64,000 nt of DNA from NCBI GenBank assembly GCA_051362555.1, contig CM120642.1:14942001-15006000 (forward strand), given 5' to 3'. Source of the stretch: Lingula anatina. Lineage: Eukaryota; Animalia; Brachiopoda. The notes below the pieces were generated by a model. It did not search any database. It was given only the letters and a program-made list of their open reading frames with translations, and was not told the DNA's origin. A program made the position numbers and the translations under genes. The number at the start of each line of letters is the position of its first letter. Position 1 is the first letter of the stretch. Of this stretch, positions 20,210-57,000 are shown one piece after another.

Positions 20210-20245
<36 letters not shown>

Positions 20246-23130: not shown

Positions 23131-23161
<31 letters not shown>

Positions 23162-24205: not shown

Positions 24206-24239
<34 letters not shown>

Positions 24240-31574: not shown

Positions 31575-31789
31575 GACTGCATTCCCACAGATTTTAGATC
31601 GACCTATCCCCGTGGGGAGTCTCACTAGATTACTGTCAGCTTAGCCGGCTTAAATGTCTGTCCCGCCTACTAAAAGCTGTAAGGAGGTAATTAACTTCCG
31701 TGCTCTCTCGGCTGACAGCAATTTGGCATGAACCCCCAGGGAGTTAGGTCGATCCAGATGGATCGATCTAAATCTGTGGGAATGCAGTC
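31575..31789. mobile_element. Fold-back MITE family A, copy 4, with TAA TSD (PIF/Harbinger Tourist-like)
   Basis: TIRs GACTGCATTCCCACAGATTT / AAATCTGTGGGAATGCAGTC; TAA at 31572-31574 and 31790-31792. Confidence 0.85.
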
Positions 31790-32369: not shown

Positions 32370-32898
32370 GAACACAATAATGCCGACACTAAATGTAAGT
32401 GAGCATTAAGACGAAGTCAAAATTCTTGAAACCTTTGATAAAACGTCATAAACGACATGCCGTCACCAAGAATCTTGATTACACACATGCCGAAGAGATT
32501 GGTGTCACTGGATGCATGGAAGAAGAACATCAAGGTTATCATTGTCAGCAGAAACCCGAAAGATGTGGCCGTGTCCTTCTGTGCCTTTACAAACGCTTGT
32601 AACTTGTAAACTGCATGATTACAGTGGCACTAAATGACTTCGCACGGATTTTTCTCGCTTTTCTTGCAAGGAAAAGGTAAAGAATAATATTGATTGTCAT
32701 AATTATTGCCATAAGCGGTTTTTTTGTAAAAAAAAAAGATCTGATATGATCTATGTGCGAATTTTACAGGTGTTTATTTATTTGTTTATTTATTTATTCA
32801 AGTTGCGGGAAGTTCATGGTTTGAGAACAAGAAATGGTTTGAGGCAGCCAACGACAATCCTAACTGCTTGTTTCTGACGTACGAGGACATGAAAAAAA
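32370..32898 (+). pseudogene. Degenerate fragment of a SULT-A-type gene (exons 2 and 3 only)
   Basis: High identity to 22737-23265, including flanking intron sequence. TGG->TAA at 32378, CAT TAA, deletions and frameshifts; exons 1, 4 and 5 not found. Confidence 0.9.
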
Positions 32899-33440
32899 GT
32901 AAGTTTACATCTGGGGCATCAAATGAAGGATTTTTAACAATCATAATCGATATGACAGTAATAAGTTACATTTTAACTTGTGTATGATAGATTTACTGAA
33001 ATCTTGTGAACAGAGCAAATAAGGTAGGCCTAAATGTTTTCTTTTAACGAATGGTTGTTGATTTCTTGTACTTGCCCTAATATGTCCATACATAAAGCAA
33101 GTTCAATGATTTTTATCCTACAAAGTTGTTTTACACATACGCACATGTAACAATGAATGGTTTGCTCACAAGAATCGAAACGAAAGGATGTAGAAAGCCC
33201 ATTACTTATTTATTTATTGTGATGTGACGTGTATAAATGGATTATAGTCACTTTAAAAATGATGATTCTATTTGGTGTCTAAATAGAGATGGGTAGGACC
33301 ATTTCATATAAATACTATTATTCCTATTGATTTTAACGCTAGTAAAGCACGCAGTGACACCTCAATACCAGTAAACAACAGGTAACTTGGCCAAAAAAGG
33401 GGACGCTCAAACGTTATTTACCCTGCACCACTGCTTTAAA

Positions 33441-36400
33441 ATGGCGGAAATTCGAGTCAAAGATGCTGGAGGCCATGAATATAACGTGATAGAGTGGCGA
33501 GGGATGTATTTTCCCCTTTTCCCTGGAATAGTCCCTCGTTTGGAAACCTTGGGTACGTTTGAATGCAGAAAGGATGACATTTTGCTTTTGACGTACCCTA
33601 AATCAGGTAAGTATTATGGCCAAAAGGGCTGATGCATCTGAAATGTATAAAAATGATAAACAGTAGGGCCTACATAATTGTTCGATTTTTACGCCGTGGG
33701 GCAGACTGAAATCCATGCAGATTTAAAATTAGCCTAGGGCAAGGCGAAATCAAAATCACAGTCGATTTTAAATAATAAATAGCCTATATGGGTTTTCGTT
33801 AAAGGTGTCACTGTTTCTAGGTACACGATGGATATATTATATAGTAAGCATGGTAAAAAACAACAGCACTGATGACCCCAGCATGCACTCGATGTACCTT
33901 GAAATGCTCGACCAAGAGGATTTTGCCAAAATGGCGTCTCCCAGGATCTTGTCGAGTCATCTGCCCATACACCTCCTGCCGCCAGATGTGTGGAGAAAGC
34001 AGATCAAGGTCATCCTAGTTACCAGGAATCCAAAAGACGTGGCTGTGTCATATTATAACTTCCTGAAAGGCATAAAGAAATTTGAATACAGTGGCCCATG
34101 GGAATCGTACTTTCCAATTTTCACACAAGGGAAGGGTAAGATATAAATAGGGTATAACAGCCCCCTTGGCACCAGGTGTAGCTTGTGTGAATTCTACGTC
34201 GCCATTTTGGTAATAATACACGTGGGACTGCGCCACTGTTCATACTAAACATGCCTCAGTATTGTTGTGTACCTGATTCTTCAGGGCTTCGTTTGAAATG
34301 AAAGGGGACATTTATCGCGTCAGCGCATAGATAAAAACGCCTTTGGAATACAGGTCGGTACAGTGTCGTGTGTGCGAAGCACCCCACCCCTCTGATTATA
34401 GAAAGACATTTACTGGTAAGAATATGTTGCTTATTATCTAACATAATCTTCACCAATAAGATATTTTTATATGTACTTTTAGGAGGAAACTAAGGGTCCC
34501 GAGAAATTTTACGCATTTATTGTCTTTAAAAGGGTCAATGCTCACCTGCAGTTCCACGGGGTCATGTCGATACTCCCGCGCACCGATACTCCCCCTCAGT
34601 ATATCTGTAATTGTGGGGGAGTATCGGTGCGCGGACGTATAGGCATGTAACCCAGTCCACGACCCCATCATCTGCACTTCCGTTATAATGTAATGTAATG
34701 TAATGTAATGTAATGTAATGTATACCCATGCTTGACTGTCACATTGATTGATTAGATTTAATCCACGATTGGCTTCCCTTTATTGGATTGTGGCTACCTA
34801 ACTAAAGACAAGTAGGCCTGGGCCTAACTAGTAAAACAGGATCAATACGTATTTTCTTGATGCTGAAAGTGAATAATATTGCGTGCCTTGCAAGAAAACT
34901 TTAAAGTTTTGATTTATATTGCAGGTAACTATTGATGTTTGAAATCAACAGCAATTGTGACAGACAGATCATTGAACCCCGTTCATCCTGTGGAACCCCT
35001 GGTGATAGCACAATGGCTGACAGAGGGATATAATGGTTCAAGATTTGTTTGCTGGAAGGGGGCATTAGTGCGCTGGATTTGGTCTTAAAGTGCAGTTTGA
35101 TATCACAAATGATCTTAAAAGATCTTAATCATTACAGCAGTAGTCTTAAAATGGACTGAATCTGCTTTTAAGATCAAAAATAATCTAACATCTACTTGAG
35201 TGGTTAAGCAGTTTCCTCCCCTCACAATAGAGGACACCTCTGCTCACAATAGGAGAATGTGTAAGGGGAGACAACTTAATTGGCTGTCAGTCCAGAATTG
35301 GTCTTACTCATGGCTTAAGATCATGTTAGACTATTTGTGATCTTAAATTGCACTTTAAGACCAAATCAAGCCCACTAGTGGATGTCCATGTTAACACACC
35401 TTCTATGTTAAAGGGCAAGTCACAACTTGACCCAGGCACATTAATTAGAGATGGACAGGTTGCATTAAAAAGAATACATGTAGAAAGGTTAATTGGTTTT
35501 GGCAAAACGTATAAGGTCTTGGTAAAACGTATGAGTGCCCCTAGGAGTGTTTTCTCATGTCCATTTTCAGAAGAGCTATTGTCAGTAAATATTCATAAGC
35601 ACTCCACGTACCTGCATAAGGTTATATTATAAAGTGATATTCTTTTTTTATTGATGTAATGAGCATGACAGGCAATGTTACGTAAAGCATTGTTATTCAG
35701 TCTACTGTAAGAATCATGAAAGGATGTATAAGTTAAATAATTTATTTGTGCACCAACTTTCCTGAATGTGTAGCTGCAATTTCTCGGCCAATGAAATACT
35801 GCAGATATGGAAAACTTTCTATAAAAGTTTCAGAAATAAAATTCAATAAACGTAAAAAACATTTTACAAATTTACACAGTTTTTTGTTCTTTTTACAAAA
35901 TAGCACTACTGAATTATAGTGCTGCCAGCGCGGCGCCGGCGGTGCACGTGGTTTTAGTCCAGAGCTGTATCGTTCACCGGGTGCTCCCCACGTCACCGTT
36001 ACCGCTTCTCCTCCTAAACTACAAGAGCCCCAGTATCCATCTCCTGTGTGAAGGTCACATATAATCTCAACTCGATCCACATGAATTTTGGGCTTTGTCG
36101 GTGCTCGGGTCCAGGTGTGGCGCTAGACGCAATGCTCTCTTGTTCTAAATTTGCAAATCCAAATCGAAGGATTTATGGGAAATTTCTTCAAAGATGGCTG
36201 ACAGACAGTCATAAATCAGTCAGGAATACACCAGTACTGTGATCAGAAAGCATTTAAACAACTTAAGATCGCGCTTTGCAACATTTTTTTCCAAATGGCC
36301 TAGTGAACCTCGCCGTATTTAATCTTTGATATTAGTGAATTAAAAAACTGCTCTTAATAATGTTAGTAGTAACCAATATTTCATTGCCACGTCTAAAGGC

Positions 36401-38014
36401 CGTTTGACAGTGCTTTGCAGGGTGCGACTCTGAAGACATTGGAAAAAATGCTAAAAAAGCAATAGATAAATAAATAAATAAATACAGAAATTTATCGATG
36501 TCCATTATTTTGAATTTATGTGTATTTAACAACGTGCATTTCACTCATTTTAGTTCCTTACGGCTCTTGGTTTGACCATACCAAAGAGATGTGTAAGAGA
36601 GTGGACAGTTATCCCAACTGCTTATTTCTTACTTACGAAGATATGCTTAAGGTATGCAGAGGAATGCGTATTTAGTTCAACATTTAATCGACTATTAATT
36701 CCCTCGATGCCCGAGTAAAATCTATTATAAGTGACACAATGTATAATTAAAATCTTAAATTTGCAAAAAGATATGGGAACAGCATTTTCCAATTGCATTA
36801 TTGTAATGGTTAGAATTCTGCGGATTGTCGTCACAAGCTAACACTGTTCTGCAGAGTTGAGATATAATATAATAAATAATTTACAAAATCTAATAAAAAT
36901 GCAGCATCAAAACATAACAAGCTTTGCTTAATTGCACTATTTTAATACAGGATTTACCAGCCTCTGTGAAAAAAATAAATTCCTTTCTCGGCTTTGAACG
37001 ATCAGACGCATTTTTGGAGGAAGTAGCGCAGAAGTGCACATTTTCCTCGATGAAAAGATCTGAAGAAACTGGAGAACCGCAAACATATCTGAAGGATGGT
37101 CACAGATTTTATAGAAAAGGTTTGTTAATGGTCTTTTTGATTTTCTATCTTTCAGTTTACGTGTCAATTGTTGCTTTCTTCTTCCAATACATCTCATCTT
37201 CTTCCAATTCCAAATTCCCTGTTACCACTAAATTGAAGGGTCTTTTCGCATCGACCAGTCTACGTTGACAGGTGCTATTAGTATACGTTGCTGGTTGGTG
37301 TTGGTGGTGGTGGTGGTGCGTCTTACTCCCTTTCATTCATCTTTGACATGTTTGCTTCCTGCTGTATAATTAATAAATTAATTGACCACGTCACGCGGGA
37401 GCTCTTTTTAGGTGACTTAAAAGGGATAAATCTGAGATTCCAAATTATACAATAAATATACTTTTAACAACACATACAACGTGGACCTTCGTAGATGGGG
37501 GGGGGGGGGGGGGGGGGGGGGGGGGAGGGGGGGGGGGTCTTTCTCCCTCTCACTCGTCTTCGTTAAGTTGCTGTTTTACAAACACGTTTATTAATTGATC
37601 ACGTTAAGCGGATGTGTTATTATTATCTTGAGATTATTACAAAAACACATTTAAAAAATCGTCCAACTTTGAATGTCCGAAAAGATTTAGTTAAAACTAT
37701 TAGGAAGTGTAACAGAGTTATCGATTACTCCAGGGAAATCCATTTTATGGCACTTTTTTTAGCCAAAATGAAGAGTTGTCATCACGTCTGAGTGGATCGA
37801 CCCTCAAATTTAATAGAACATCACACTCAGGAGTGACATCATTTATTTTTTTAAAGAAACATCGTAGCAGCAATGCATTTCTTGTAATTCAGGTCAAGTT
37901 GCCGACTGGAAGAACTGGTTTACAGTGGCCCAGAATGAAGAGTTTGATGAGCTTTACCATGTCAAGATGGCGGATGCACCTCCTGACCTCAAGTCTAGAG
38001 TAGTGTTCCAATAA
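33441..38014 (+). CDS. Cytosolic sulfotransferase D; exons 33441-33606, 33821-34135, 36554-36651, 36951-37119, 37893-38014
   Basis: Paralogue of B/C with the same motifs; intact frame; intron 2 is enlarged by an insertion. Confidence 0.92.
34687..34721. repeat. (AATGT)n microsatellite
   Basis: Seen directly in the sequence. Confidence 0.9.
35059..35386. mobile_element. MITE with ~70-bp imperfect TIRs, nested in the SULT-D intron insertion
   Basis: Left GATTTGGTCTTAAAGTGCAGTTT..TCACAAAT pairs with right ATTTGTGA..AAATTGCACTTTAAGACCAAATC. Ends approximate. Confidence 0.75.
37497..37537. repeat. Poly-G tract (~40 nt) in SULT-D intron 4
   Basis: Seen directly; the paralogous position in SULT-C intron 4 has a shorter G run (~30239-30251). 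Confidence 0.85.
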
Positions 38015-38794
38015 TCTTTAAAAAAAAAAGATATCATACAAACAAATACTTTAATTCATGAATTGCTCTAAAACTTGAAAAAAGATATCATACAAACAAA
38101 GACTTTAATTCATGAAGTGCTCTAAAAGCAAACCGAGAAGGTTTAACGAATGAAACAATGCACCAAACCTTGAATATAAATTCAAAAACTGACCACTATA
38201 TTTCAACAAAATACAAAAGGTGACTTCCACAAATTTGCCTATTGCATGATATTGCCTCTCATAAACATCTTGCATAACTGCTGTAAGGACTACCGTTCAC
38301 TGTGTTCCCGGAGAAGAATTTGCAGGGTCCGACAGACTATGTCATGCACCTTTCTACCCTTTTAAGCTCACCCTCTGTGCAGGGCGGCTGCCATAGTTCG
38401 ATTTGTGAAAAATAAAAATGCAAAAAAGCAGATCCCTCAATAAACAATCAGTGTCGAACTTCTGTTTTTACAATACCCAAAAGGTATTAGATGGGGTTGC
38501 ATATATCTATCATATATTGTATTTCATTGTATACTACAATAGTAAGAGATCCTGTAAAAATAAAATAAATTTTGTGCTTAATAAATTATCATTTCTATTA
38601 TAAAAAAAGCAAGCCAGAGATGCTCTGAACTTCAAATGTTGTTAAGGGACGGTGCGATAACATTAACAGACAGCTTTCGTCTCCAGCCTGGTGTCTGCCT
38701 TCTGGGGTATTTTCTAAAATTGATTACAGTTGTCCATCATCCTCACAGATAATCTTACTTGTACAAAATACTACTGCATTTTGAAGTTAATGAC

Positions 38795-41700
38795 CTACGT
38801 TTGTGTCTTATTAGAAAACATGCTTTTACACAGGATTACCCCTCCACAGAGAAGAAAACTCCCAAAGAGCACGCACAACAAACCAGAGACAACAGAAAAA
38901 GCAACAAATAGATTTGTATTTGTTTTCTTTACGTCAATGCTTGTGGAAGCGTTAGTTGTCAGAACCGGATTATTGGTGGTGGCGGCGGTGGTGGTGGTGG
39001 TGATGGTGGTATCAGTGGTGCTGATGATCTGCGGTACGTAATTAGAACCCATGTGAACTTTCATCTGTCCATCGTTCTCGGAGTCAACGACTTTGAAATA
39101 ATACCCAAACGACATCACGTCGACGCCATTTTGATTAACCGTCGTGACATAATTATCTCGCGGTTTATCTCGTCGTTTCCTTTTCCCCCACCCTGGCTTA
39201 TTGCCTGGACACTGCGATTCCACACATTCTGGGTTCATGTTTCCTTCCATACAGGCTGCCACCGAGCAGAAAAACCCCATGGTTCCGTTCGCTGGATTCC
39301 GTGGCGTGATACGAAACATAGGAAATGTTGAAATGGCCACATATTGGGACGACCCTCGGCTAAATCCGTTAAAGAAAGGGACGACTGGACACCCGCCAGA
39401 GAGTAGTTCTATAGTTTTCCATTCATTGGTATCTGTGATGCCATTAGCCCAACATCGCTCAACCTTAATTTTCATCTCGCGTTCGCCAATTTTCCCCAAG
39501 ATTAACTGCATGGTGATATTTTCACCCAGAACCACCGGGGGACCGTTTGGTAATATGCTACTGTTGTCTTTAGATCGAAACAGCCTCATGATAGCAAACG
39601 AACCAACTCCTTCATATTTCACAGGTTGGTCAAATTCAAGAAGCACAATGACTTCCGCCATTATGTTAGTTATGTTATGTATTGTGGTGTCGTACGGTTG
39701 ACGTTTGCAAGTGAAGGGTTGGGCTTCATCTATGGTTTCTAGGTAGTAATCCTTATCATGTTGCAATATGACTGTGAATTCTTGGTCTTGCACGACGCCG
39801 CATTGCCCATATGGGACCGTAAGGACCCATGGAGGCTGCTGCACGTAACATCCAGCCTGGCTGTAGTGTTTGTCCACGTAGACAATACCTTCGTTGTTGG
39901 GCGGAGAGAACGTGTCCGAGCTCTCCGCGTACTGAATGGTCACTTCGGTATCGCCACAAACGATACTAGTGGCTATTTTTCCCGTTTTTCCACTTGCGTC
40001 TAGAAGTACACAAATGTTATGAAACAATCGACAACTGAGAACTGTTAACATAAAAGATCTTCAAAATCGTCATGAAACCTTAACGCGAGATAAATTAAAG
40101 ACGAACACAGTGAGTACTTTAACGTTGAGTGCATATTAATCTATATCACGTTACACGACTAACCGTTTATCATTGCATTGAAACGGGTGTCACAGCAAGC
40201 AACCCATTCTTTAAACGCATCGAACAACTTATTTCAAGGAAAATCACACCATTTAACTACGTTCTTATTCTGTTAACTTTTTTATTCTTCATACAGTCTT
40301 TCATTGGAAAATCTTACCTGTGTGATTGGTGCAGGTAGTGCCGTTAAAGTATTGGCCTAACGGGCAAATGCAGCTGTATAAGTGCACATTTGGGTAACAG
40401 GTGCCTTCATTGCAGGGATTACCAGCACATACATCTGAAACGAAATGAAACATTTGCGCCTTCAAGGTGTTTAAGCACGTGCACCGTGTTAAGGTAATCA
40501 AGGACGATTGTGTTTCGTTTTGCATGGTGGCCAAAGAGTTTTAACTCTCTTATGTGAAGCATTTAGTATAATACGGAACAGTTAAGAAATTACACGCAAT
40601 CCAGTGTGCTTTTCTGGTGGCCCAGTTAGCTATTTCTCCTTTGCACATGCTATGTGTTTTTTCGAGCTTTTGTGTGTTTTTCTTATGTTCACATCGTTCT
40701 TTGATATAGTGATGCTAAGTAAAATGATGAATATTTTTACTGTATTCAGTTTCGTAAAAGTTGATAAACATTCCCATATACGAGTCAAAACTATAAATTA
40801 CTAAATTTAATTTAACACCTGGAGTTAGTGAAAGCAAGACATCCGCTGTGTTTGCAGCAGTGCATGTATCACTGATTTACATATATTTATTTAATGATGT
40901 TTAGATTTGTTAAAATATCATAATTAAGTGCGCTGCAAAGAAGAACACACGGGGAGTAGGTCTACAACAACACAGAGGCTAATGTTTTTATCTTATATAA
41001 AATATCTGAATGAAAAGGCAATTAATAATGCAAGTAATTAACATAACACCATCACAAAAAAACTTACTTGTGCAAGTAAAACCATCTCCAGTGAAGTTAT
41101 GCTGACACCGGCAGGTATATGACCCAATCGTATTGAAGCATTCGGCGTGGTCGCCACACGTGTATAGTTCCAGAGCGCACTCGTCACGGTCCGTGCAGTT
41201 GGTGGCTCCGTCTCCGTCGAAACCCGTGGCACAAGTACAGAAGTAAGAGCCGTATGTATTCGTACACTGCGCGTACTGGTGACAGGAGTGTTGGCCCTCT
41301 TCGCACTCGTCCAAGTCAACACAGTAAAGGCCGTTGCCAGAGAAACCAGCGCTACATTCACAGTCATAAGACCCGACTGAGTTGGTACAGGTGGCGTTTT
41401 CACTGCAGTACCCGGGAACGGCTGCACATTCATCTATATCGTCACAAAATAGGCGACCATAACCGGTGAAGCCCTCATTGCATGTGCAAAAGAAAGAACC
41501 CGGAGTATTGGTACACGTGGCATTTCCGTCACATACAGTGGGATTGGCCTGGCACTCATCATCGTCTGAAACACAGATTATTTCACTTTTAACGTATATT
41601 TTCAGTAAACGAATGACTTGGGACGGTAATGCAGCGAGGTCTCCTCGGTATTTTTTTCACAAAAATATATATGTATTTATTCACACGCTGGACACATAAA

Positions 41701-44700
41701 TACGGCACACCTGCACGGAAGAAGCGAAAAACGGTAACAATGCCGCATATACAAAGAGTATGTTGGATCGCCTTAAACTGCCCTATAAAGGTTAAATAAA
41801 GAAAGGTTGATATGAATTTGAAATAAATCATCAGTCGAAAGTTCTGAAAAAAGTATCTGAAAACCGCCCATGTTTTTGACACTTGTACAATATTCGGGGT
41901 ATCACTTGTATAATAAGAACACACAGGCGTGTTGATTGTAGAAGAACTTTACTCGACTATGGCACAATGGGTGTTCAAAGCCGAAATTGTAAATGTCAGA
42001 GACAGAAAAGTATAGTCTATCTTACCTTCACAAGAACCCCCTGTCGCAGGAGCGGAGTAACCTACTGGGCATGCGCAGGAATAGGTGTCATTGATAGATG
42101 AAGCACACACTCCTACTCCACATGGAATGTACGTGCAGTTAGTGTGTTCTGAAAATGCCAAGATGTGATTTGAAAATTTAAATGGTAGAAATTGTAATTC
42201 GTTTACTAAAATGAAACTAAACGACGGCGGATGAAAAGTGGAAGAGTATTTCAATTAAAAAAATAAAACTGCATGCAACGACAGGCTTCATAAACGATAA
42301 TTGCCGTTCGCTGTGACAAGCATTAGAAGAAGGAGAACAAATGCCCGAATTAACTACTCGAGCCAAGAAAAGAGTACCCAAACATAAAATTAGTCACAGC
42401 GTCGTACCACACGAACAATTCGACCGGCTTCCATTTGGGTGTCTGGCTGTATAGATACCAGTTTTTTTTCAACCCTAGACTAGTATTTTGAATGAGGTGG
42501 AAGATCCCGAAAACGGCACGTTAGAGCTTTCATAAATTCCTAGTCGTATAAGAGTGATATTTTTCCCCTTCGTACTCGTGGCTACTGATTTTATGTTGGG
42601 AATCGTAATTCGTGGCTCGTGTCGTTAATTTGGGCATTTGAGCTCACAAATTTGAGGCTCGAGTTTTCAAACACCGAAATCGTTTATAAGGCCTAAAATA
42701 CAAACCAACTATTAATATCTGGAGTGCATTGTCAATTATGATGTAGACGATCAAAGTAAATGATATATTTTCAGTTTTTAGAGCCTTCTTTATTTTTCGT
42801 TTATTTTGCCAACATGAAAGTTGCGTGAGTCAATTTATGTGAAAATCGTCCTCTTACAATAACAATACCGTACCTACACATGTCGTTCCGTTAAAGTAAT
42901 AGCCACTGGGACAAGTACAGTTGTAGGAGGGACCGCCTTCAGTGGTGCAGGTCCCAACCCCGCAGGGACTGGTGGCAATACAAACATCTATATCTGGATA
43001 CAAAAATAGCAGTGAAAGATGAAATGACATTTACAAAAAATTGTACTGGATTCTTGCTCAAATACTTACAAAATGTGCAAGAAGAATAGATTACAATAAA
43101 TGCGTCGCGTAACCTAGCTTTTCTGGCTCATCAGTAGTGTTACAGCCGAAGTCACATGACAGAAACATTTATTAGAAAAGTTCACAGGTGATTTAAGTCT
43201 TTACAATTGATTCAATAAGAATGCGTGATTTTTATATACTTGCGGGTACTTACAGGTGTGTGTGTGTGTGTGTGTGTGTACGTGTGTTTTATGTGCGTGC
43301 GCGGCTGTATGGCGTGCAAAGGTTACCTTCATAAGTTGTAAGACTGAATCCTTTTGCACCCCCGGCCCAACCACGAAACAGAACCAACGCTGGCTCCCCT
43401 ACAGAACCCGTCGTCAACTTTAATGTGTCATACTCCATACCACAGAATCTAAAACGAAGCCAGGTGTAAGACAAAAGAAATTGAGGACATACACAAAGAA
43501 AGATCGACAGGCCGGCGGGAAAACTTGTTTTGTATATCTGTTTTATACATTCATATATAAAATTAATACATATATCCATCAATACTTATTGGGAAGAACA
43601 GGGCAAGATTTCGCGATAGTCGGTATGACAACAAATTAGGATTTAAATTGGTTTTACATTACCTCTTGCAAGTGCGGACATTCAATTCCCCGCTAATAAA
43701 AATACAGTTCTGCTTTTGAACATCTCCGCCCCATACTATTGCGATTTGTGTTAAAAGTTTTGTGTCATAAATCTGACAATTCATGTTGCCTCATGTTTCA
43801 GTTTTCCAGAATAAACTGTGGTACTTACCTGGACCCGGTAAAGGCAATTCCTTGGTACCTTATCTCCAGGTAGTCTCTACAGGCATAGTAAGTCCACAAC
43901 TGGAACCCATACTCAGGACCAATGCTGACCACCACCTTCCCGCCGACAGTACTCTGGACACAAAAATGTCTTCGATTAATTCGTTTCGGGTGGAATTTAC
44001 GTGTGAAGAATTATTTTCTTTTTATTCATTTTATCAATGTAAGATTCTGATTTACCGTAAGAGGGGCTCCAAACGCATCAAATTCATCCTTATTGAACTG
44101 AGGTAATTAACGGTTCATCTCCAAAAATAATCGTTTTTGCTTGATTTTAATTTTGTCCCTTTATGTACTCTTCTTAACAGCGACTGTTCGTGTTTGCTTG
44201 CTTGTTTGCTTGCATGCTTGTAACTCACTGGTCTCAAAAGCCACTGACATTTGGTTCCACCCTCATAGATATTGGGATAGTTCGGAGACGTTATAATAAT
44301 CGGGGTTGTTGTCACTGAAATTTCGGCGTGGCAGTTGTGTGTACCTAAAATCAAGACATTTAATTTACATATTTAATATGATACATTTTTGGTATTTTGT
44401 TTTGATTAATGGCTTACAATACATTGTCAGCAGTTAACAAATGTGCCTATCGCGAACTCGATTCTACGTCGATATTGACGTGTACACGCCGTACGCGTTC
44501 CTTCCCTATCGACGTTTTTAAACATTTTTAAAAATGTTTGGAACACGTTTGCTTCATCGTCGTTCATATTAGTGTCGTAATTCTAGAGATGAAAGCCATT
44601 TGCTTAAATTTGTTGAATTTAAAAACCTAATTCACTTTGTTCTGTCTCCGTAAATGTTTGAAAACCTTGCAGACATACATTAAGCGTACATGAAAAATGG

Positions 44701-47700
44701 TATTTTAGGAAATTTGATAATTTCCTTCAAGTCGCCAAGGTAAGCCCCGTTCACCTTAATTCATGTCCATTCACGTCACAGATGAATTATTGCAGTGACA
44801 ACGAATTCTGGCAGCTATTTTAAAACTTGGTAATGAAGGGAAATGTGAAACATGTAGGGTAGTATATTGAATTTCAAAATTTAAAGCTCTAACGGCTACC
44901 GTACGCCTTTAGGTCTACATGTCTATCCTCATTAATGTGTCAGGTAAAAAACTTTATGTAGCAGATTAAATATTAATTTACTAGTCTACACATTACAATT
45001 TTATTTTCTTAATGATAATTCTAAAGGAGGAGAAAAAATAAGACAAAAATAGATACTTGGTTCCACCTTGGAGCAGTCCCCTGTCAGCCCCTCTGGGCAC
45101 CTGCAGGAAGAGCAGTTCTTTGGATCCGGATATCCTTCATTATAACACGTTGTTGAATATGATTCGCAAATCACTGGAATAAGATCGAAGTGAAATGCAA
45201 TTAAAGAAGAAATGGATGTTTATAACAACACAGAAGAACTGTAAAAAAGGTAATCAATCATAAAACGAGCAGGGGGAAAGGATCAGCGAAGAAGATCTGG
45301 GATGAAATCCGTGGCAGATCCATGATACCATGGATGCGAAAGCGGGTTTGATCTGCCCCTACTTCCAAACCGATACAGCAAGTTAAACACGCAATATTAC
45401 AATATAATAATACTTACAGCCGCAATACTGTATGTTAGCAGCCTTGATGTCAGCAAAGGACAGAGCGGATTGCCACGACATGGCAAACTGATACCGAGGC
45501 TCTTTGGCGATTATGGTAAACTCTGTGTCCGCCAAACCACTCACTGGGAACGCCTGAAGGAAGATTTGACCAGGCAATTAAGAACACATATTATCAAATA
45601 AGAGAACAAATTGTAATTTTTTTAACGTATAATAAGTTAAAACTTTAAGGCAATATCTAAAGCAGTCCCGTCTTGAACATTTAGAATCTTGAAATTACAG
45701 AGAGGGTGTTTCGTATTAAAAAGCGTAGTTTATAAAGTGAAAGAAAAAACATACCCTGCTATTATAGTGCATATTTGATCCCAAATCGTATCTGACATTC
45801 ATCTTTGTGTCCGCCTGTTCAAAGTTATGGATTTTGCCCGGGTTTATGTTATCAAACTGAACAGTGACGTACTGGTCTCTGTCGGCGCGGGACTGCTCGT
45901 GCCAAAAAGCGAGGGCGTGGCCAAGCTCGTGAGTGACAGTACCAACCTTGAATGGAGATTAAAACGAAAATGAATGACGTCATTTTTCCGTAACTACATA
46001 GATCATTATACATATTAGTCAGGTAATAAGAATTATGGTCCTAGGAAGAAATACGTTCTACTATTTCAACTCTAAATACCATTTATATTTTATTTTAACT
46101 AAAATTTATAATAGGAAACCATTCTCGGTTAGTTCTGCATAATGCTAATGTAGTTTACTCACATCAAAGCAGCCGGTGTCAATGCTGATTTTCTGGGCAG
46201 TAAGATGGCTCCCAATATACGACGAACAACTAGGTAGACGAACAACAACAATGAGCAACAAAAAAATTTTCAAATCTACATTACAATTAACTTTTTACAC
46301 AATTTAGCAAACTGGCTCTGCATACTAAGCACAGCTGCAATCGAACCATTTTCCATTCTTAATTGAAAATATCAACAGAACAAAACCAGGATCCACCCCT
46401 AGAAGTCGCACTGAAATAAGATTTGTGATTGACTGATGTTTCAATGCACCCATTGCTGCCACGCATGGTATATTCCCATTTTGAAAAAAAAAAAATGACA
46501 TTGCTTGAGATGCTGTCAGTTACAAAAACGATGTCATTACTTATCTTTACCTATAAATGGATCGTTTTAATCTCGTCAATGACTCACACATATGGGTCAT
46601 ATTTGCCTAACTATTTTCTGTCACTTTTTGTAATTACCGTTAATTTCTTTCTACATGTATATCGGAGGGTATTACGGTATAAAAGAAAAAAAATAACGGG
46701 TCAAAATAATCAGAATTATATAACATAAGATGTGTGAATCTAGGATCCAAAATAAAGCATTTATATAAATAATAAATAAGTTTTAACACATTTTGAATCC
46801 TAAGGTAACACTAATGTTCATTCATTGTTTGCGGTTGCAAATTGTCTGGAATGACCCAGTTTCCCCAAGAAATAAATTTACCCTCCACTACGTTGGAACT
46901 TGAGGTACTTTCCAGCCAGCCAATTTTCACTGGTGTACTCAACAAACTCAAGGCACGTGTTTGACTCCCAGTGTGCAATGCCAGCTCGTATAGCGTTCTT
47001 CTCTGCTGTGCCTAAAAATTCAAATCGATGACATTTGAAGGTTAAAAGTCTTGCCGCTTTTTTTACGACCCAAATAAACACTGATGCGTGTATGAAATGC
47101 ACATACAACATGTCCTCGCACATGTACAGGCGTTGCAACATTTGGCAGCAATCAAATATGTATTAACCGCTTTGTTTAATAATTATCTACAAATTGTATT
47201 TGTACACACATGCCCATACTTATTTTTCAACAGAAATAATATATAATCGACAGACTTATGCACTAGCTGGCTATTTAACCAAGCAAATCAAATTTTTACT
47301 GGGATGCAGTAAGATTTTCTGCTGTTTTTAGATCGTCACTTTTATACATTAAATCATGCCAACCGCATAAACATTCAAAGTAACAAAACTTGCGCATAAA
47401 TATTCCGAATGCAGTTTTCTCACGCACAAAATGTACACTGTCAACCTAATAGATTTTACTTACTATAAGCCAAATGTTCAAAGACATACTTGATCGGCAA
47501 AGCCCAGTAAGTAGTGTAGGCGACTTTTCGTTTCTGTCGCGCTTTCTCTCTCCCAAGTGCTCTATATAGTAAGTCGTCTGCTTGTTCGGGGGTAACATAA
47601 ATGTCACTAATTGCATTGTTCTGTACACTGTCAGTGCATTCCTTGGTGGAGCATGGGAGAAAAAACAAAGAAAAAATAGGCAGGTAAGACAAACATACAT

Positions 47701-48937
47701 AAAAGATGATATGTTAGGCCGCAAAACCTAATACAGATAAACGCACGCGCGTACGTCTTAAATTCATACGCTAGTATTATAAGAATTGTGCAGTAAATAT
47801 TTGTAATTTCCAATTACATTTCAATTGAGGATTTAAGATAAACTACCTGTACAACTGCCCTTCCTCTCCTTCCTCGCCTTGCATTGGAAGCGATACATAG
47901 GCCACGGAGGGATGCAATCACCCGCTGGAAATTTCGTCTACCTATCCCATTATAGTCTTTCTGGTTCTTCCTGCCTGCTTCCATGTTGGGCTGTAACAAG
48001 CAAGGGGCATAAATATGGGGAAATAAATGTAAGATCCTCTTTCGTACACCACAAAATAGCTCTAGTTATGCCCTGAAGGATGAAAACATTTCTGATAAAA
48101 TTTGACGACAAGGCTGGCGGAAGGGTCTAGGATGAACTTTATTTTCCCAATAGACCAGATATTTCTTAATTAAGTGGAGAGGGTCCGGTGCCTTCTGGTC
48201 TTGTACACAATACCATGGAGTATATGGCTTTAATCAAACATATTTAGACCTACAATATAACAATGCATGAAAGAGGGTGTTTTATATTTTCTTCATTGGA
48301 ATTAACAGAAACTATTATTCCCGTAAAGATCAATTTCCAGTAAAATTTCAGCATCAGCATGGATTTTATAGACAAGAAGTGCTTTTCATGATAAATTTGG
48401 AATGATAATTTGATTTTTGTAAAATTAAACACACTTGCATGCACGAGGGATTAGACATTAAAAATCGCCCTTCGCATTGCCTTTCGATGTCACTTGTGAC
48501 TTACCGGTCCACCACCACCTGCTGCCGACACAGAAATGATACCATCAGCATTTTTCTCATGGCTTTTACTAGAATTTCCCCGTTGCTGCAACATAAATGA
48601 TATATTATATTAAAATTAATAAAGGGCCAACTATTTCGGGTTAGGCTATGGCGGTGCTACATGTACGTGTGTTCTGTTGGATCAAGTTTTGAACCGCTCA
48701 TATAACAGAAGGATAATAAAATCTGTACACAAAGGACGAAAAAAAAAACACGAAAGCAAGGTATTCCAATCAATGCACTAGGAAGTATATTTGTTGATTA
48801 TTATTATTATTATTATTATTATTATTTTGTTATCCACTTACCTCTCCACCGAACTCCCCGGCGTCTTGTGCCACCCCTGTTGTCACGGCAACCACCACCC
48901 AGGCCACCAGTAGGGTCAGTACGCGTGGTATATCCAT
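38795..48937 (-). CDS. ~1188-aa type I membrane protein: signal peptide-prodomain-astacin-EGF-CUB-7xEGF (4 Ca-binding)-ZP-furin site-Thr-rich-TM; 17 exons: 48937-48842, 48585-48505, 47990-47847, 47641-47464, 47011-46882, 46229-46163, 45946-45755, 45553-45418, 45173-45057, 44344-44229, 43953-43829, 43448-43327, 42993-42874, 42148-42026, 41565-41068, 40434-40318, 39999-38795
   Basis: Signal peptide MDIPRVLTLLVAWVVVAVTTG; RQKR maturation site; astacin motifs HWESNTCLEF, GCSSYIG, HELGHALAFWHEQSRADRD, SNMHY; astacin-type EGF CYNEGYPDPKNCSSCRCPEG; CUB ITSPNYPNIY..CQW, DYLEIR..FCG; DxDEC cbEGF repeats; ZP Cys pattern (VERCWA, GCP, FPMFR, FFCSVAAC); GKRKRR; TM. All 16 junctions are GT-AG and phase-compatible (3567 nt in total). 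Confidence 0.85.
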
Positions 48938-49051: not shown

Positions 49052-51022
49052 CTTTTGTAGTTCAAAGACAAACTGACACAACAATTCACCCCCAGTACAG
49101 GGTTTTCTATTAAGAAACTTGATAATAATAAATAAGACACGAGGGTGAAAATGGCATGTGGATGTTTACACTGTTTTCAATACATACGTTAAATAATTAT
49201 TAAATACTCCAAAATTCGTCTTTGTCCGAGCAAACTTAGTAGAAAGTCTATGTAATGCCTTACACGGCCGATGCTAAACGGCCTGTGTACGAGTTGCAGT
49301 TATCACCTACTTTTTATTGGTTGTTATTGTCAACTCTTTTTTAAGGCTCGCGCGTGGAATCCTAATTGTACTATACACACCAAGTATGCCTACCTCACCG
49401 GATAAATATAACGTGTCAGGAAGCCTGAAACTATTTCCTTACTGCGACTACAAATGCATGTATCCAGACTTACCCACGTGTTTGTCCGATTCTCCATGTG
49501 AAGGGAGGCTATGAGGATGAGCAGTTGTTAGATTCATGACCTTGCACTTTAGTTCAGTGTCAAAGAATCTGACCTTCTACGTATCCCGGAATTCCCCAGT
49601 GATTAGAAGTTGGAATTCCACGATAAAGATTGTTCTCTTTTCCTCTCTTAGGTAGCTTAGCTCTAATTTACTCTTTAGATAAGTTGTGCGCTGTTTTATG
49701 TCGTTTTATTTAAACAAGACTCGAGATTTCAAGTTTACATAAGGTATGGACTCAAAGCCAAAGAACAATTGATTAATTTTTTCATTGAAAAAATATTCCG
49801 AAAATTCAAGAAATCGTCTCTTCATTTTCAAAAGATTGAAATCATTCTCCATTTTAAAATCAAATTTTTATATGCTTGCAATATATGGTGCATATATATT
49901 GCAAAGAAATTAGAATAAACCATTATTAATGTTATTATTATTATTATTAATATTCTACTCCGGTTAGTGGTAATATCAATCGTGAAGTTTGTTTCGCAAC
50001 CGAGATGAAGTGACAAGCAAAGATTTTTCTGTATTCATATTTGAAAAAATGGGGAAAATGGTCGTTTAAAGTGTTTGCACGCTGTATTGAAGTTTATAAT
50101 CAATAGGCAATATTTGAATAAGATATGTGATTTTTAGATATGGGTATAGTATGACTGGTGATGGTAGAATTCTCCCTGTGGTGGGTAGGATACAGGAAGA
50201 ATTTAGAACACTGGGAAAGATAGCTAGAAATCCATGACTCTTGTTGCCGTCTTGCTATGGCTATGAAATTAATTAATTCAGAACATCTGTCAATATTTAT
50301 ATCATCACTGTAAATCAAGTGTAAACTGCTATAATAAAAGTAATAAACATATATTAACTGGTTTATTCTATTTGTTTATTTTCATTCAAATGCCACAAAA
50401 ATTCAGTGTATTCACTTAAATAAACTGTGTCAGCATGACTTTTGTAAAAAAAACTTCTCAATATAAAAGGTTAAACGTTTGATTCACATGTCTAGAGTGG
50501 TTCAAGTACGACATCATGTTGTTATGACACAAGTAATGTTTTTGTATAATTACACTGACAATGATTAACACAAGGGGTCTTGATCAACTTTTTCCTGTTG
50601 ATATGACTCTCAAATCAGCCAATGTTCATTTTCGTTTGTTTATACAGACTTTTTAAAATGTCCAGGTCTGCAATTTATCTTAGATTGATGGGTAAATTAT
50701 TCCATTCTCTAGGTGCTGCAATTTTACACTGTATGCCACTAATCTTGCCATACAAGCTTTAGAAGGAAGGTGATCACCTGATCTAAGATTTCCATCTCAT
50801 TTAAATAAGAAGGTGCAAGTTTTTAAAATATTGCATGCACAAAAACAGATGAGATGTCACTTAATTTATTAAAACCATCTTTTCTAAGTTTCCTGGTATC
50901 TGCTTCACAATCGAAAGACAAAAGAATTGCGTTCTTTTCTTTTGTCAAGTGTAAGTTTAACCCAGCTCACCCTAAAAAAAAAAAAAAAAAATTGCCAATT
51001 TGATGTAGTCAGCACGATTCAT

Positions 51023-54000
51023 TTATTTGAGCTGTTGGTATATAACATTCAGCACGTTTCTCACTTTACAAGTACCGCCGTTCTGTTTTTCCACCACTTT
51101 CAAAGTCTGTCCTTCTTCCGTACCCACAGGCATTACAAGGCAGCCCCCAACCTTAAGTTGCTTGGTCAGCTGAAGGACAGAAAATTCTGGATATATAACA
51201 ATTACAAACTGGTATAGAAATAAATGCTAAAATTGTTCAAATTTCTATAAAAATGAATATGATGATAATTTTCACTGTTTCTTGCACATTTTTCACAGTC
51301 CTTATGATATAACAGTAAGATATCACTATAATCACAGTGATAACCTTAATGAAGTTGGGAATAACTTAACATATATTATACAACTGGCCGCACATGCATT
51401 TGTTGGCCATATTAAGTTAAAAGAAATCATTTTAATGCAAAATGGTGCTATAAACGTTCTTTTTATTCAGGTCGCAATGAGTTAATTTAGATATATAAAG
51501 AGAAGAAGCACCACTCGTAGCAATACTGAAGAATAATGGTATATCATAAAACAAATGCGTACTGCACTTGGTACTTCTGGTGCCGCCCCACCAACATGGA
51601 TGACGTCATAGGGGCCCAAGGCTTCGTGTCCATCTTTACCGTCGGCACACACCAGAACCAGGTGGTTGGTGTCCATTAATTCCCTGAGACGCGGATCTTT
51701 CTTCATGTTGGCTTCGGCAAACTTCACCAAACCCTCAACTATGTCAATCCCAACCGTGTACCCCGTTCTTCCTGCCTAAAACGATTGTAAAATATTGAAA
51801 TTAGATAACAGCTGCATGATGTCGGGGGAATATGTTACATTGCCAATAGTTGAAACTTTGAGCAAGCACCTTTTTAAATGACGCCATCAGTTAGAGTGGT
51901 CAGTTCGCCTACATACTTCTACATACATCATATTCAATAGGAACAATGTCTGACTTTTCATTGATTAAAATTTTCAAACAACCAGTAACGTTCAATAAAT
52001 GCTTTGACAGTGGCGGATTTAGACAAGAGGTCAGGGCTTTGATTTCTATTCCCTTCTTGAAACTATAATTTTGACTACCTGAATCAAGTTCTAAACCGTA
52101 TCAAATGGCACCGTTCGCCCTTAAAATACCAAAAAATTTCGGGGCCCTTAAGCGGGCTCCGAACCCCACGCCAAGTTGGGGGGGGGGATGGGAGCGTCGG
52201 CTTCGCATCTGCGTACCCCCTTTCAAATAGCCCTGGATCCGCCCCTGCTTGGATATAATTGATCTGGGCAAGCATCGATAGTGGTATTGATTCAACTTTG
52301 TTTTTATTCGGTATCAAATACAGGCTCGCAAGGGAAACATTATTGAGTAGATACCAATCCATTATTTAACCGACAAAAATCTGTTATGCGGCCTTGTAGC
52401 ACGATGCTGCTCCTTGACATAATCCTGTTTTGTAATAGTCCACATATTACTAACCATAATGGCCATGCAGGCCGTCAGGTATCCGCTCCCCATGCCGACA
52501 TCAAGGCAGCGAGCACCCTCCTGGAGACGATCCACCATCAGCTCTAGAGTGGCACCGTGCTGGAATATTAAATTAGTTTCTGTTGTCTCGTTCCCATTGG
52601 AAACATTATAAAAAATGACACTAAATCAAGTTTGGGAGAGCTATAATATTTTATTTCCATTTCGGAAAACTTGAGATGTAAAAAATTGTATTTTTATGAA
52701 AAACCACTAATGCGTTATAAATGACATTTTCAGTGATATGCCTCATTCTCGCATTGTTTAGTTAGATTAGTCCAATATATGGCGAAATATCATTTGGCTT
52801 AAAGCCATGTAGATCTATGCTAATAAAAATCCAATGTACTAGTATACACTGTAAAAATAGTGCTTAGCATTTAAATACATACAACATACGTTAAGCACCT
52901 ATACGCATTTAGAAATATGTGTAAAAGCTAAGCACGTATAGCTTTTCAAGCGTTTCACAGAAGAAAATGCTACACACGTTGGCAGTGTTACACGTTTAGC
53001 TATGTGCTTAGCTTCACCGGTATATGGATCTATAATAAGTCTATCACAAGCTAAGCACATTGGCTAGGCACTTCCCCTGCTAAGCGCGTGAGGCTGCTAA
53101 ACATATGGAGCTGCTATAGGTGTGGAATTCCTAAACGCGTGGAGCTGCTGAACAATACCCTCTATCAAGGCCGCAGTTCTTGGGGACATTTTTTGCTGAG
53201 GCGACATCAGACCAAATTGACTATCTATTTATCTAGAGACATATCCGTGAAAAATCAATCTGTCGCCCTGGTAGAGGGTAGCTGAACAACAAGTTTAGCT
53301 TTTCAAGCTTCTTTCAGAAGAAATAAAAATGTTTAACATTCTTAGAAGTGTCGCACTTTTAGCTATGTGATTAGTTTCACCGGTCCCATAAGTTTATTAC
53401 AAGGCTCAACAATTTGGCTTAACACTTCACCTTGTAAACCTGTGTAGCTGTGGAAGGCGTGGAGCAGTCTGCTCGAACGCTTGGTGTCCTTCCTTGCAGT
53501 ACGAGTGCTTATTTAAAATACGCCTATTAAAGATGCATACAAAGTCAATTTTTGCTCAAAAACCAACCAAATACCAGCATATAGTTTCAAAAAGTATAAT
53601 TAAGGAAATTGCCAGAAGGCATTGATTAATATTACCCGAAAAATAATATTTGAATGGATTTTTCTGTTAGCTTACTATCCTGTATATACATGGGGCAGAA
53701 AAGTAGGTCACATAAGTGGGTTAAATTTCTGACCAAAAATTAAAAGAGCAATCTAAAGCTCTTTTATGGCTGATCGAGTGATTTATTCAGTTTGTCCCTT
53801 GGCATGTCGACTTTATTTGAGTCGTATAAGAATCTAGTAGAGGTGGTTTATATGTGTTACTGGCAACCCACGCTCCACCGATGCTCGATTCATATGTACC
53901 TTTAAGTAATAATCCAAATAACAAATAACGTTTTCACGACGTTATCAGATGGTTACATGCTGGTAATGGTATAGAAGAACATTATGGTAACGTTATGGGT

Positions 54001-57000
54001 GTTTTAACTCCATGCAAAATGATGTACAGTAACGTTATAATTTGTAAAAAGATTCGAAGACCTTTTCTACAAAATTTTATGATACATGTAACATCATTTT
54101 GTGGAGTTTTATCAGCGTGTTTATAACATTCTGGAAAAACATTATATAATGTTTTGAAAACATTTTTTATATAAATAACCAAAACACGTCTTATGCTGTT
54201 TGAACTACAGTTAGTGGTTATTTCCAAAATTGGCTTGGGGTTAGTCGGCGACTAGAGCGGTGCAAATATTCGGACTATCGGTACCGAAATAACCAGCATG
54301 TGATGAAAGCTTAAATAAAGTATTATAATGAATACCCCACCATCATCCTGATGTTCTATTGTTCATTACTTCCGGCAAAAAATAATAGATATCACTACCG
54401 TAACGCATTTTATCAAAATATGGAGAAAGGTGTTTTAAAGTAAAAATGATAGTTGTTTCGTTCCTTTAGTGAACTAGTGAATTTTCCTAACCTGTTTTTC
54501 AGCAATACATTCCAATAAACTACCTCGCAAGGTCAGATAACACAAGGATGAATAAGTACAGCTGTAAAGATGATAGTGGAAAGTCAACGATGTTGACAGT
54601 TCACGGTACCCTGTTATAGAAAGAGATAACTATAGCAGTTAAAGGTGACCGTGAGTTCGTCTGTGTGTGTGTGTGTGCGCGTGCTCGCGCGTGTGTGCGA
54701 CTAAAACCCTTAGCACCTAAAAGTTAAACAAATACACCCTACATTTATAAGCCGTCAAACGCGTCATACTGCTAAACACAAGCGTGTAGCATGTTAAGAA
54801 GCTAAACATGTTAGGAGCTAAACGCGTGGAAAAAGTGCGACAAAACAGGCGCTTAGAAATCTGTTTAGGAGCTAAACACTGATTTTACAGTGTAATCTTT
54901 GCAAACAAAGATACCAAAACATATCATTTTAAAGTTTTTAGCTTAAGCAGCACAGGGAACTTAAAATGGCTGAAAATAATAACATAATTGTCTGCATGTA
55001 GATGAAAATAAATTAAATAGTAATTGGTTTAACATAACTCACAGAATGAAAGACGCCTGCATGTTAGCTAAATCCGAAAGAATGCTCCATTCCACAAGTG
55101 ACGGTATGTGATATAACTTATAGCAAAGCAAGCATAATTTAAACCAAATTATTGTAAAGACGATTACTTACCATGTGAGGTGCGCTGATAGTGGCCCCAT
55201 GGCCCACTTGCTGTGGTTTGTCTAGATATGGATTGTTAGGACTAAAATGTCCACGTACAACTGATGCCATGGCTGATGCAACACGTGGTGTTTTTACTGT
55301 GCCTTTAACTGTAAAAGAATATGAGCTTCAGGTGAGTATACTCAGTGAATATACTAGTGAATGCCAACTATTCCGTTGTGTTATAAACATGATAATTGTG
55401 CGTCTTTTGGTTGTTCAGTGTTGACAACATTTGCAAAGCGGAAATGCTACTGGAAGTGTATTAGTAAAGTGTATAGTGTACCGTAGGTACTGGTAATAAA
55501 GTTAATCAGAAGCGCGTGCATCTATAGACATATTAGAAAAATTTAAATTGGAGGGTAGGCCTACACTCTACCAGCGTCGTAGATAAATAATGTGCACTTT
55601 TGTGTCATCAATTAGCCAGAGACTTATCTAGTGAAAAACCTTTACGGTTTTTCGGACCAATGAACCTTCGGACTATCGAGACGCCCCCATATAGATGGGG
55701 ACGCATGTAATGTGACAAGAGTAAGCGTACACCTACTAAAATTATAGCTTATCATCATCATCGCCATGCATTAAGTAAAATAGTGTGTTGGCCTACGTAT
55801 AGGTATACTATTACCTGCAGGACTTAAAATGTTTGACATAAGATCCACCTTGTGCGTACATATATATATTATAGAACAGGCAATATGTTTGATGTGCACA
55901 GCGCATCATGGCGACCCTCGGGATCACATGCGTTGAGCTTACCTTCGAGAGAACCCACCAATAATTTGTTCTTCCGTTTATCTTCATCAGAGGCTACAAT
56001 GAAAAACGAATAAATAAATGATTAAAGAGGTACAGGCTTTTAATAAGCGGTAAAATGAAATTTGTTAATTTGCTTTTTTATTTTTCTTTTGCAGCACCGG
56101 ACTCTTTTCGAAAAAAAAAAAAAAGTACAATGAGCTTGGCGTTATTCTGTTTTTTTTTCTCTATAAATAAAGGTAGGGGAAATAATAGTGATATAAATAC
56201 TTAAACTTTTTGAAGTCATGTTCTGTAAAATATAATATCGTTGACATAGATAGACATATTTATTTCCATAATATGAAAAATATTAACAGATGTTTGTTAT
56301 TTAGGTTAGATCAATATATGTATGTATATATATTCCTATTTTGCCCGAATCGACCCTGTTTTACGAATACTGCATCTAGACATAACTACAATTTTTTTGT
56401 CATGAACTTACCTTCCGTATTTGTTAAGTCAATCAAGGAAGCAGGTGCTGAGGAATCAGGTGGTTGGTCCGTTTCTAGTTCTTCCTCTGTTAGTAACCTG
56501 CCAAAGCCTTCAATTATCCTATTCCTATCGGCACCGGCTTTCGCACCTGCTTTGAAGACCAGCTTTTGTAAATTTGGCAGGCCATCTACTTTGACGTCTC
56601 GAAGGTGGATAAGACGTTCCTGACACTGAGTCTTCATGCTGGAAATTTCTGCTGGGTTTCCATACTTGACCAAATTCACTGCGTATTTGGTAGTGCTTTC
56701 CATGGCTGCCAGAGTGAGTTGGAGACCCTCTTTGTATGCCTGTAGCTGCTTTCGATTTTGGGCTTTACCGTTTTCTACCTTGTCCAACAATTGCTTCTCT
56801 AGGGAGTTGATGATAGCGTGTAGCATTGCAGACTGATCTTTGATTTCAGATGAAACTTTGTCGGAGTAATCATCGGCGCTTTCCTGCAGTTGGTCCACAT
56901 TTTGCAGTGTTCCTTGAACTGAATCCATTTTCGTACTGACGCCAGGAATCAGCCCTTCGATTTCTGCTTTAAACTCTGTGACAAGATCTTCAAGTTGGCC

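Follow-up and report, generated by a model that had tools for sequence, protein, structure and literature searches.

An astacin protease, a ZP module and a membrane anchor joined in one spliced gene of Lingula anatina

A 64,000-nucleotide stretch of the genome of the brachiopod Lingula anatina (assembly GCA_051362555.1, contig CM120642.1, positions 14,942,001 to 15,006,000 of the forward strand; hereafter the window) carries on its minus strand a gene of 17 coding exons (48937-38795), which is confirmed as a real, spliced, single-gene fusion of an astacin metalloprotease, a zona pellucida (ZP) module and a membrane anchor.

Gene model, transcripts and published record

All introns of the gene are GT-AG, and its exons join into one frame of 3567 nt (1188 amino acids) with a single terminal stop, encoding in order a signal peptide, a prodomain, the astacin domain, an EGF, a CUB, seven further EGFs, the ZP module, an RKRR site, a hydrophobic-patch strand, a Thr-rich stalk and a transmembrane (TM) helix. 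GC content is 0.49 in the exons and 0.34 in the introns. Pfam recognises Astacin (exon 7, E=4e-22), CUB (5e-05), four EGF_CA, an EGF and ZP-C (2e-09) on separate exons, the astacin domain scores E=3.4e-50 against PF01400, and hydropathy places a signal peptide at the N-terminus and one helix at the C-terminus. The anatomy proposed in the original prediction, which was made from the sequence alone and included the seven EGFs, the ZP module, the Thr-rich stretch and the TM segment, is borne out. Its furin site GKRKRR is also present, the motif proper being the RKRR at 1061-1064 within it; R-x-K/R-R motifs start at residues 98, 142 and 1061. A 5' non-coding exon ending at 49474, which had gone unnoted, was added to the model. 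Introns 12-16, which lie between the CUB and the ZP module, and hence all introns flanking the EGF exons 13-16, are in phase 1, the usual mark of shuffled modules. Exon 15 encodes four of the seven stalk EGFs, each with a calcium-binding consensus, and the ZP module runs to the stop codon in a single exon of 1205 nt (exon 17). No second astacin or ZP gene was found when the 64-kb window was searched by tblastn with the gene model and two of the stand-alone Lingula ZP paralogues described below.

RNA reads were drawn from eight of nine listed Lingula runs (selected by species label; 6-30% of each run). Runs X1-X3 yielded 177-209 reads on one strand, X4 and X7 two to three, and the reads from X6, X8 and X9 were mostly repeat-like or scattered. 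The proposal that the 17 exons form one gene is upheld by the single 1188-residue frame, by reads that splice 14 of the 16 introns at the predicted sites, and by even depth. Joints for intron 1 (48842 to 48585) and intron 7 (45755 to 45553), both within the astacin half, are not among the listed read joints, and between exon 8 and the ZP exon every joint is supported by reads. The two junctions singled out originally are both spliced in reads: the CUB-to-EGF joint (43327 to 42993) in four reads, all from X1, and the EGF-to-ZP joint (40318 to 39999) in 19 reads from three runs (3+15+1). The joint 42874 to 42148 is carried by six reads, all from X3. A rough estimate of depth per exonic base is alike across the ZP, EGF and astacin-CUB parts (7.2/5.4/7.1 in X1, 10.6/5.2/7.1 in X2 and 4.9/7.1/7.1 in X3). 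Of 32 listed read variants in coding exons, 21 leave the protein unchanged, where 22% would be expected to do so (P=2e-07; two adjacent variants in X8 share one codon and together make one substitution), and none falls at a cysteine or in the zinc motif; from the excess of silent variants, the gene is under purifying selection. Within intron 5 (46382-46762), six X1 reads with two start points were also seen, which could derive from unspliced precursor or a minor isoform.

Among 2883 candidates in a search with the ZP exon, a single longer protein emerged, Lingula anatina XP_013421046.1 (LOC106181263, UniProt A0A1S3KFN6), which is pre-annotated with PF01400, PF00431, EGF and PF00100. A second RefSeq model, XP_013390897.1, falls in the same cluster (Lingula loci LOC106181263/LOC106159226), and both carry an exon chain identical to that of the window model, with which they share 1175 and 1172 of 1184 aligned residues, respectively (1177 between the two). 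As a heterozygosity of 1.6% has been reported for the Lingula genome (PMC4595640), the RefSeq models are probably alleles; they may otherwise be very recent duplicates. The window frame runs four residues past both of them (38798-38809), probably because the stop codon, in the short cytoplasmic tail, is polymorphic.

The list of domains has been published before. A 2023 review of astacins gives A0A1S3KFN6 as ZP_LINUN, with the string S-PRO-CD-CUB-EGFx5-ZP, in its Supplementary Table S1, where it is the sole ZP-bearing row of sheet 1; ZP is named in the key to Figure 1, and the main-text passages on Lingula, ZP2 or zona pellucida hold no discussion of the Lingula protein (PMC9848320). The string lacks the EGF before the CUB, two further EGFs, the furin site, the hydrophobic patch and the TM helix. 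Furthermore, a 2022 study of ZP proteins, which gives them a single sentence and one supplementary figure, states that some lophotrochozoan EGF-ZP (LEZ) proteins also bear CUB and zinc-metalloprotease domains (PMC9290575). Its entry g27450 (LanLEZ1) has a ZP at 802-1055, which fits Cys802 of the fusion protein, so that g27450 is probably the fusion gene, and LanLEZ1 and LanLEZ2 (g27450, g8732) are likely its two entries; LanLEZ9 and LanLEZ10 were considered and rejected on disagreeing ZP coordinates. Literature searches, which left out most subscription papers, found no functional study of the fusion protein. In the supplement on the shell proteome of PMC4595640, no row matches the gene identifiers tried, whose versions may differ, and none of five LOC identifiers is present in the supplement of PMC13425148. 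The latter mentions 'astacin' in five places and, among the matches listed, has two transcripts with nematode astacins as best matches. The architecture, originally flagged as unusual and possibly novel, is therefore already catalogued in the literature (ZP_LINUN and the LEZ proteins) and yet forms no described family. New here are the TM anchor, the furin site, the hydrophobic patch, the stand-alone ZP paralogues, and the alanine in the zinc motif together with the lost S1' arginine.

The protease head, the ZP module and its paralogues

The protease head retains the features that define the astacin family, namely the zinc-binding histidines, catalytic glutamate, RxDRD, SxMHY and cysteines (PMC9848320). 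The zinc motif HELGHALAFWH-E (45931-45896) has its three histidines (H238, H242 and H248) and catalytic E239 intact, the family glutamate and RxDRD lie in EQSRADRD (249-256), and the Met-turn is SNMHY (289-293, 45778-45764). In an alignment with other astacins, H238, E239, H242, H248, E249, R252, D254, R255, D256, M291, H292 and Y293 match, as do the catalytic-domain cysteines C186 and C340. An SDI at 119-121 (D120, 47608-47600) sits opposite the GDI/SDI of homologues and is the likely aspartate switch, and a predicted activation site, RQKR 142-145 (47539-47528), precedes the mature domain. The catalytic domain is followed by an EGF, whose cysteine pattern is invariant in the alignment, and by one CUB. 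The head region has 14 non-self matches, which are annelid, nemertean, nematode, sea-urchin, lancelet, tapeworm and other astacins at 29-37% identity, and PF00100 is absent from all 14. The motif MSWQ (321-324, 45481-45470) lies opposite the IGQR of TLL1 and homologues, so that the S1' arginine is replaced by glutamine. In more than 80% of astacins a GQR/K motif supplies an S1' arginine or lysine and with it a preference for acidic P1' residues, and the two tested enzymes without this preference, LAST and crayfish astacin, favour small residues (PMC3186203). Owing to the missing arginine, an ovastacin-like specificity is unlikely, and by analogy with LAST and crayfish astacin the head is predicted to prefer small P1' residues.

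Ten cysteines are conserved across the ZP module. Its ZP-C domain scores 38.1 bits against PF00100 (cut-off 24.6), with six cysteines invariant in the alignment, and it is preceded by a ZP-N-like domain, in which four cysteines are conserved in four Lingula proteins and the model is all-beta (pLDDT, the predicted local distance difference test, about 60-80), with an hhalign probability of only 17% to a ZP-N-bearing protein. A single-sequence search of the PDB matched a ZP chain at only E=0.15. From Cys4 to the estimated first ZP-C strand there are 37 residues, compared with 30-31 in two outgroup ZPs. Polymerisation is absent from ZP proteins whose linker is minimal, and assembly is set off once the patch is released (PMC7737619), so the long linker suggests a module of the polymerising type and not of the endoglin/betaglycan type. 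An AlphaFold2 model of the ZP region built from four sequences has two beta-rich domains and a strand beyond the furin site, which is the likely hydrophobic patch from its position, its conservation and the model; folding from the single sequence reached a pLDDT of 31. When the model was compared by Foldseek, the 14 best-listed rows were all ZP structures (ZP2, uromodulin, ZP3/ZP1, betaglycan and endoglin), several over about 280 columns, followed by T-cell receptors, and Atlas features ranked ZP clusters first (0.94).

Searching 1.84 billion representatives without an index yielded seven matches, of which the three below 1e-30 were the fusion itself and two stand-alone Lingula ZP proteins; a profile search added a third. 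These paralogues, LOC106164032 (P0017), LOC106179981 (P0018) and LOC106151078 (P0023), each consist of a signal peptide, a ZP, a basic site, the conserved strand and a TM helix, and share 42-44% identity with the ZP module of the fusion and 54-61% among themselves. All are annotated as 'uncharacterized', P0023 has no precomputed Pfam domain, and the family is known only from Lingula. As they hold little besides the ZP module, the paralogues would suit matrix subunits, and they are likely both the source and the partners of the fusion's ZP exon. In a seven-sequence ZP tree the Lingula proteins were unresolved and the outgroup branches very long, and we therefore used pairwise identities instead. 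Its exon structure and relatives point to an origin by exon shuffling within the Lingula line, where an astacin-EGF-CUB gene was probably joined onto a ZP-TM exon. The whole-protein Atlas search returned only tolloid-like clusters (0.75-0.76), and among protein-search matches the astacin-ZP fusion was seen only in L. anatina, with word-index searches being insensitive and brachiopods thinly sampled. The fusion is thus apparently lineage-specific, and for the same two reasons independent astacin-ZP fusions may exist elsewhere.

An in-frame ATG within intron 16 (40051-39999, minus strand), accompanied by a mildly hydrophobic run, sits 32 codons before Cys802, near the position of the paralogues' starts, and could be a relic or an alternative start. 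As the start of a stand-alone ZP isoform it was set aside, because three of 48 control frames before acceptors in the gene look alike.

Proposed function and competing explanations

We propose that the gene encodes a membrane-anchored precursor of a furin-activated, furin-released protease that projects as a side branch from an apical ZP matrix, a reading to which we give a roughly even chance. It best accommodates the ten cysteines, long linker, furin site, patch strand and TM helix of the ZP module. To the observed anatomy and splicing it adds functional steps, each inferred from the biochemistry of uromodulin, egg-coat proteins and astacins. The precursor would reach an apical membrane, and a furin-like convertase may cut after RQKR145, so that the prodomain with its Asp switch leaves and the enzyme is activated. 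A cut at RKRR1064 would remove the hydrophobic patch and TM helix, the event that starts ZP assembly in uromodulin and egg-coat proteins. The ZP module could then be incorporated into filaments, in which it would probably be a minor component next to the stand-alone paralogues, with the EGF stalk and its four calcium-binding EGFs holding the astacin-EGF-CUB head off the filament, much like the N-terminal branch of uromodulin. The head might thereby cleave matrix or surface proteins in its immediate neighbourhood, with acidic P1' sites as improbable targets. The original idea of a protease built into the ZP filament thus survives as a protease carried on a ZP matrix, and self-cutting is not favoured given the change of the S1' arginine to glutamine. 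We put forward more tentatively a bolder version, in which the active astacin co-polymerises through its ZP with the stand-alone Lingula ZP subunits and one furin step starts both assembly and activity; this would be the first matrix filament with a built-in enzyme. If so, the enzyme, unable to escape by diffusion, would edit the cuticle, periostracum or egg envelope of the brachiopod from inside.

Several observations weigh against a protease carried on a ZP matrix. Pfam ZP-N has no match on the module, and profile searches of PDB sequences with the ZP alignments gave none. The ZP model is of moderate quality (mean pLDDT 58.9, pTM, the predicted template modelling score, 0.45; linker below 50), and its fold matches include the non-polymerising betaglycan and endoglin. 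Fragments of C. elegans LET-653 formed no fibrils in cell culture, and an intact ZP need not form fibrils (PMC7665627). In the zinc motif, the position held by glycine in nine of ten aligned astacins is Ala245, and at the transcript level short reads cannot place all exons on one molecule, with two key junctions each seen in a single run.

The doubts about the ZP module lend themselves to another reading, which we regard as rather unlikely: a surface protease resembling meprin, working at the membrane or shed by furin, in which the ZP serves as a non-polymerising spacer, dimeriser or binding adaptor. Meprin alpha, a type I astacin, is set free by furin (PMC9848320, section 2.5), the ZP modules of betaglycan and endoglin both match the fold and do not polymerise (PMC7737619, PMC7665627), the ZP-N of the fusion is too divergent for Pfam, and molluscan EGFZP proteins have been suggested to be mostly retained at the cell surface (PMC9290575). 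However, the linker is long and not minimal, and the fusion shares its furin site and patch with all three paralogues, which have little besides the ZP. The changes in the head invite the opposite reduction, to an ordinary EGF-ZP matrix protein in which a catalytically weak or dead astacin serves for binding. In the zinc motif Gly245 has given way to Ala, and the S1' loop is altered, yet this alanine is a conservative change present in both RefSeq copies, the same HELGHALAFWH occurs in an unrelated natural astacin (P0015), the three histidines, both glutamates, RxDRD, SxMHY, the prodomain aspartate and the activation site are all kept, and the authors of the 2023 review admitted the protein after checking family motifs (PMC9848320), which together make a dead head improbable. 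P0015 itself is one of three metagenomic proteins (P0014, P0015 and P0016; 660-876 amino acids) in which an astacin is joined to PF13517/PF01839 or other repeats.

Equally improbable is an egg-coat or hatching device in which the protease would cleave the very ZP filament that bears it, in the way that ZP2 is cleaved by ovastacin. Egg coats are targets of astacins in mouse, fish and ascidians, the last of which have coat proteins that combine EGF repeats with a ZP (PMC9265791), but the RNA runs, whose tissues are coded, give no ovary or egg evidence, the head has MSWQ where more than 80% of astacins have GQR/K (PMC3186203), and the closest matches of the catalytic domain are annelid, nemertean, nematode and sea-urchin astacins and not hatching enzymes. 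The egg coat suggested originally finds nothing in the analysis that points to it. Two adjacent genes, an astacin-CUB and an EGF-ZP gene that only gene prediction or sporadic read-through brings together, would fit the confinement of the CUB-to-EGF joint to four reads of one run and the AATAAA hexamers present within introns 12-16. Against this, a signal-peptide exon for a separate EGF-ZP gene was not identified, depth is even over both halves, the introns are short (201-725 nt), the two RefSeq models share one exon chain, and no pile of read ends inside the gene was reported, so that we hold such a pair of genes to be highly improbable. A membrane-anchored precursor that delivers its protease to a ZP matrix therefore remains our preferred reading.

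Genomic context and comparison with known systems

Table 1. Features of the fusion gene (positions in the window)
Feature	Position	Strand	Basis
5' non-coding exon, 3' end	49474..49495	minus	spliced to 48953; loose read ends at 48954 match the stretch, with a GT donor next
Exon 1, ATG and signal peptide (about residues 1-23)	48842..48937	minus	hydropathy; start agrees with RefSeq
Exon 2, prodomain	48505..48585	minus	read joint 47990/48505
Exon 3, prodomain, extra basic site RGRR (98-101)	47847..47990	minus	frame and read joints
Exon 4, likely aspartate switch, activation site, start of catalytic domain	47464..47641	minus	astacin alignment; read joints
Exon 5, astacin catalytic domain	46882..47011	minus	Pfam Astacin E=1.6e-04; read joints
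Exon 6, astacin catalytic domain	46163..46229	minus	Pfam; read joints
Exon 7, zinc motif, EQSRADRD, Met-turn	45755..45946	minus	Pfam Astacin E=4e-22; alignment
Exon 8, end of catalytic domain, MSWQ	45418..45553	minus	alignment with other astacins
Exon 9, BP10/NAS-type EGF-like domain	45057..45173	minus	cysteines invariant in alignment; alone, no Pfam match
Exons 10-12 (44344-44229, 43953-43829, 43448-43327), single CUB (about residues 385-500)	43327..44344	minus	Pfam CUB; read joints
Exons 13-16 (42993-42874, 42148-42026, 41565-41068, 40434-40318), seven EGFs	40318..42993	minus	Pfam; read joints
ZP-N-like domain, exon 17, Cys 802, 838, 854, 885	39707..39958	minus	four cysteines kept in three paralogues; model
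Interdomain linker, long	39599..39706	minus	length comparison
ZP-C domain, six cysteines	39209..39598	minus	PF00100 E=2e-09; fold matches ZP2, uromodulin, betaglycan
Consensus furin site RKRR (1061-1064)	39170..39181	minus	basic cluster at equivalent place in all three paralogues
Likely external hydrophobic patch VMSFGYYFKVVD (1081-1092)	39086..39121	minus	conserved as VALGYF.. in three paralogues; beta-strand in model
Thr-rich stalk, 14 Thr per 28 residues	38939..39022	minus	composition
TM helix (about residues 1151-1178), 10-residue tail, stop	38795..38911	minus	hydropathy

Directly adjoining the fusion gene downstream, on the opposite strand, at least four sulfotransferase (PF00685) genes stand clustered in tandem (about 21000-37300, plus), and the plus strand also carries a CD36-family gene (9075-16550) and an NTF2-domain gene (19824-20493). 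Upstream, on the minus strand, are genes for a protein-L-isoaspartate methyltransferase (51485-51775), a RING-B-box (TRIM-type) protein (56386-57663) and a family 10 fucosyltransferase (58615-59814). At 38000-38460 and 42290-42660, reads of several runs stack at 90-95% likeness or with loose ends, and a similar stretch lies near 27851-28123; these are probably dispersed repeats outside the make-up of the gene.

The significance of the fusion is bounded by a domain list that is already in print, by its occurrence in one species and by the difficulty of Lingula as an experimental animal, and until a function is shown it is a lineage-specific domain shuffle. Its TM helix would nonetheless place a type I membrane astacin among non-vertebrates, a point that escaped the 2023 review; there, non-vertebrate MAM/EGF astacins are described as apparently not membrane bound (PMC9848320, section 2.5).

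The order of catalytic domain, EGF and CUB is shared with BP10/SpAN and the nematode EGF-CUB astacins of the HCH-1 and DPY-31 type, to which the head is 31-37% identical (non-self matches), and Steinernema astacins also share SDI, FWHEQSRADRD and YDLGS. In contrast to the fusion, with its single CUB followed by EGFs, ZP and TM helix, these proteins have a second CUB or a TSP at the C-terminus and lack an EGF rod, ZP and TM helix. The single CUB also sets the fusion apart from BMP1/tolloid, for which the Atlas likeness is only 0.75-0.76, and its MSWQ differs from the GQR/K of the acidic-P1' astacins of the BMP1 and meprin type. Like the fusion, meprins alpha and beta are type I membrane astacins, the alpha form being furin-released (PMC9848320), but they carry MAM and TRAF/MATH domains and no ZP, whereas a Pfam scan of the fusion finds a ZP and neither of those domains. 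According to PMC9290575, the LEZ protein that probably corresponds to the fusion falls outside the molluscan EGFZP/EGFL shell-protein clade. The ZP half compares most closely with uromodulin, GP2 and egg-coat ZP proteins, which likewise have an EGF-bearing N-terminal branch, a ZP-N (a ZP-N-like domain in the fusion), linker and ZP-C, a cleavage site, a patch and an anchor, although their branches are not enzymes. The proteases that activate or remodel ZP proteins, such as hepsin, ovastacin and Notopleural, act in trans (PMC9265791, PMC7737619, PMC10597583). In mouse and ascidian egg coats, uromodulin and the fly trachea, ZP matrix and protease are thus separate molecules, and the Lingula fusion, which keeps both its activation site and its release site, offers a test of enzyme-bearing filaments and of local proteolysis.

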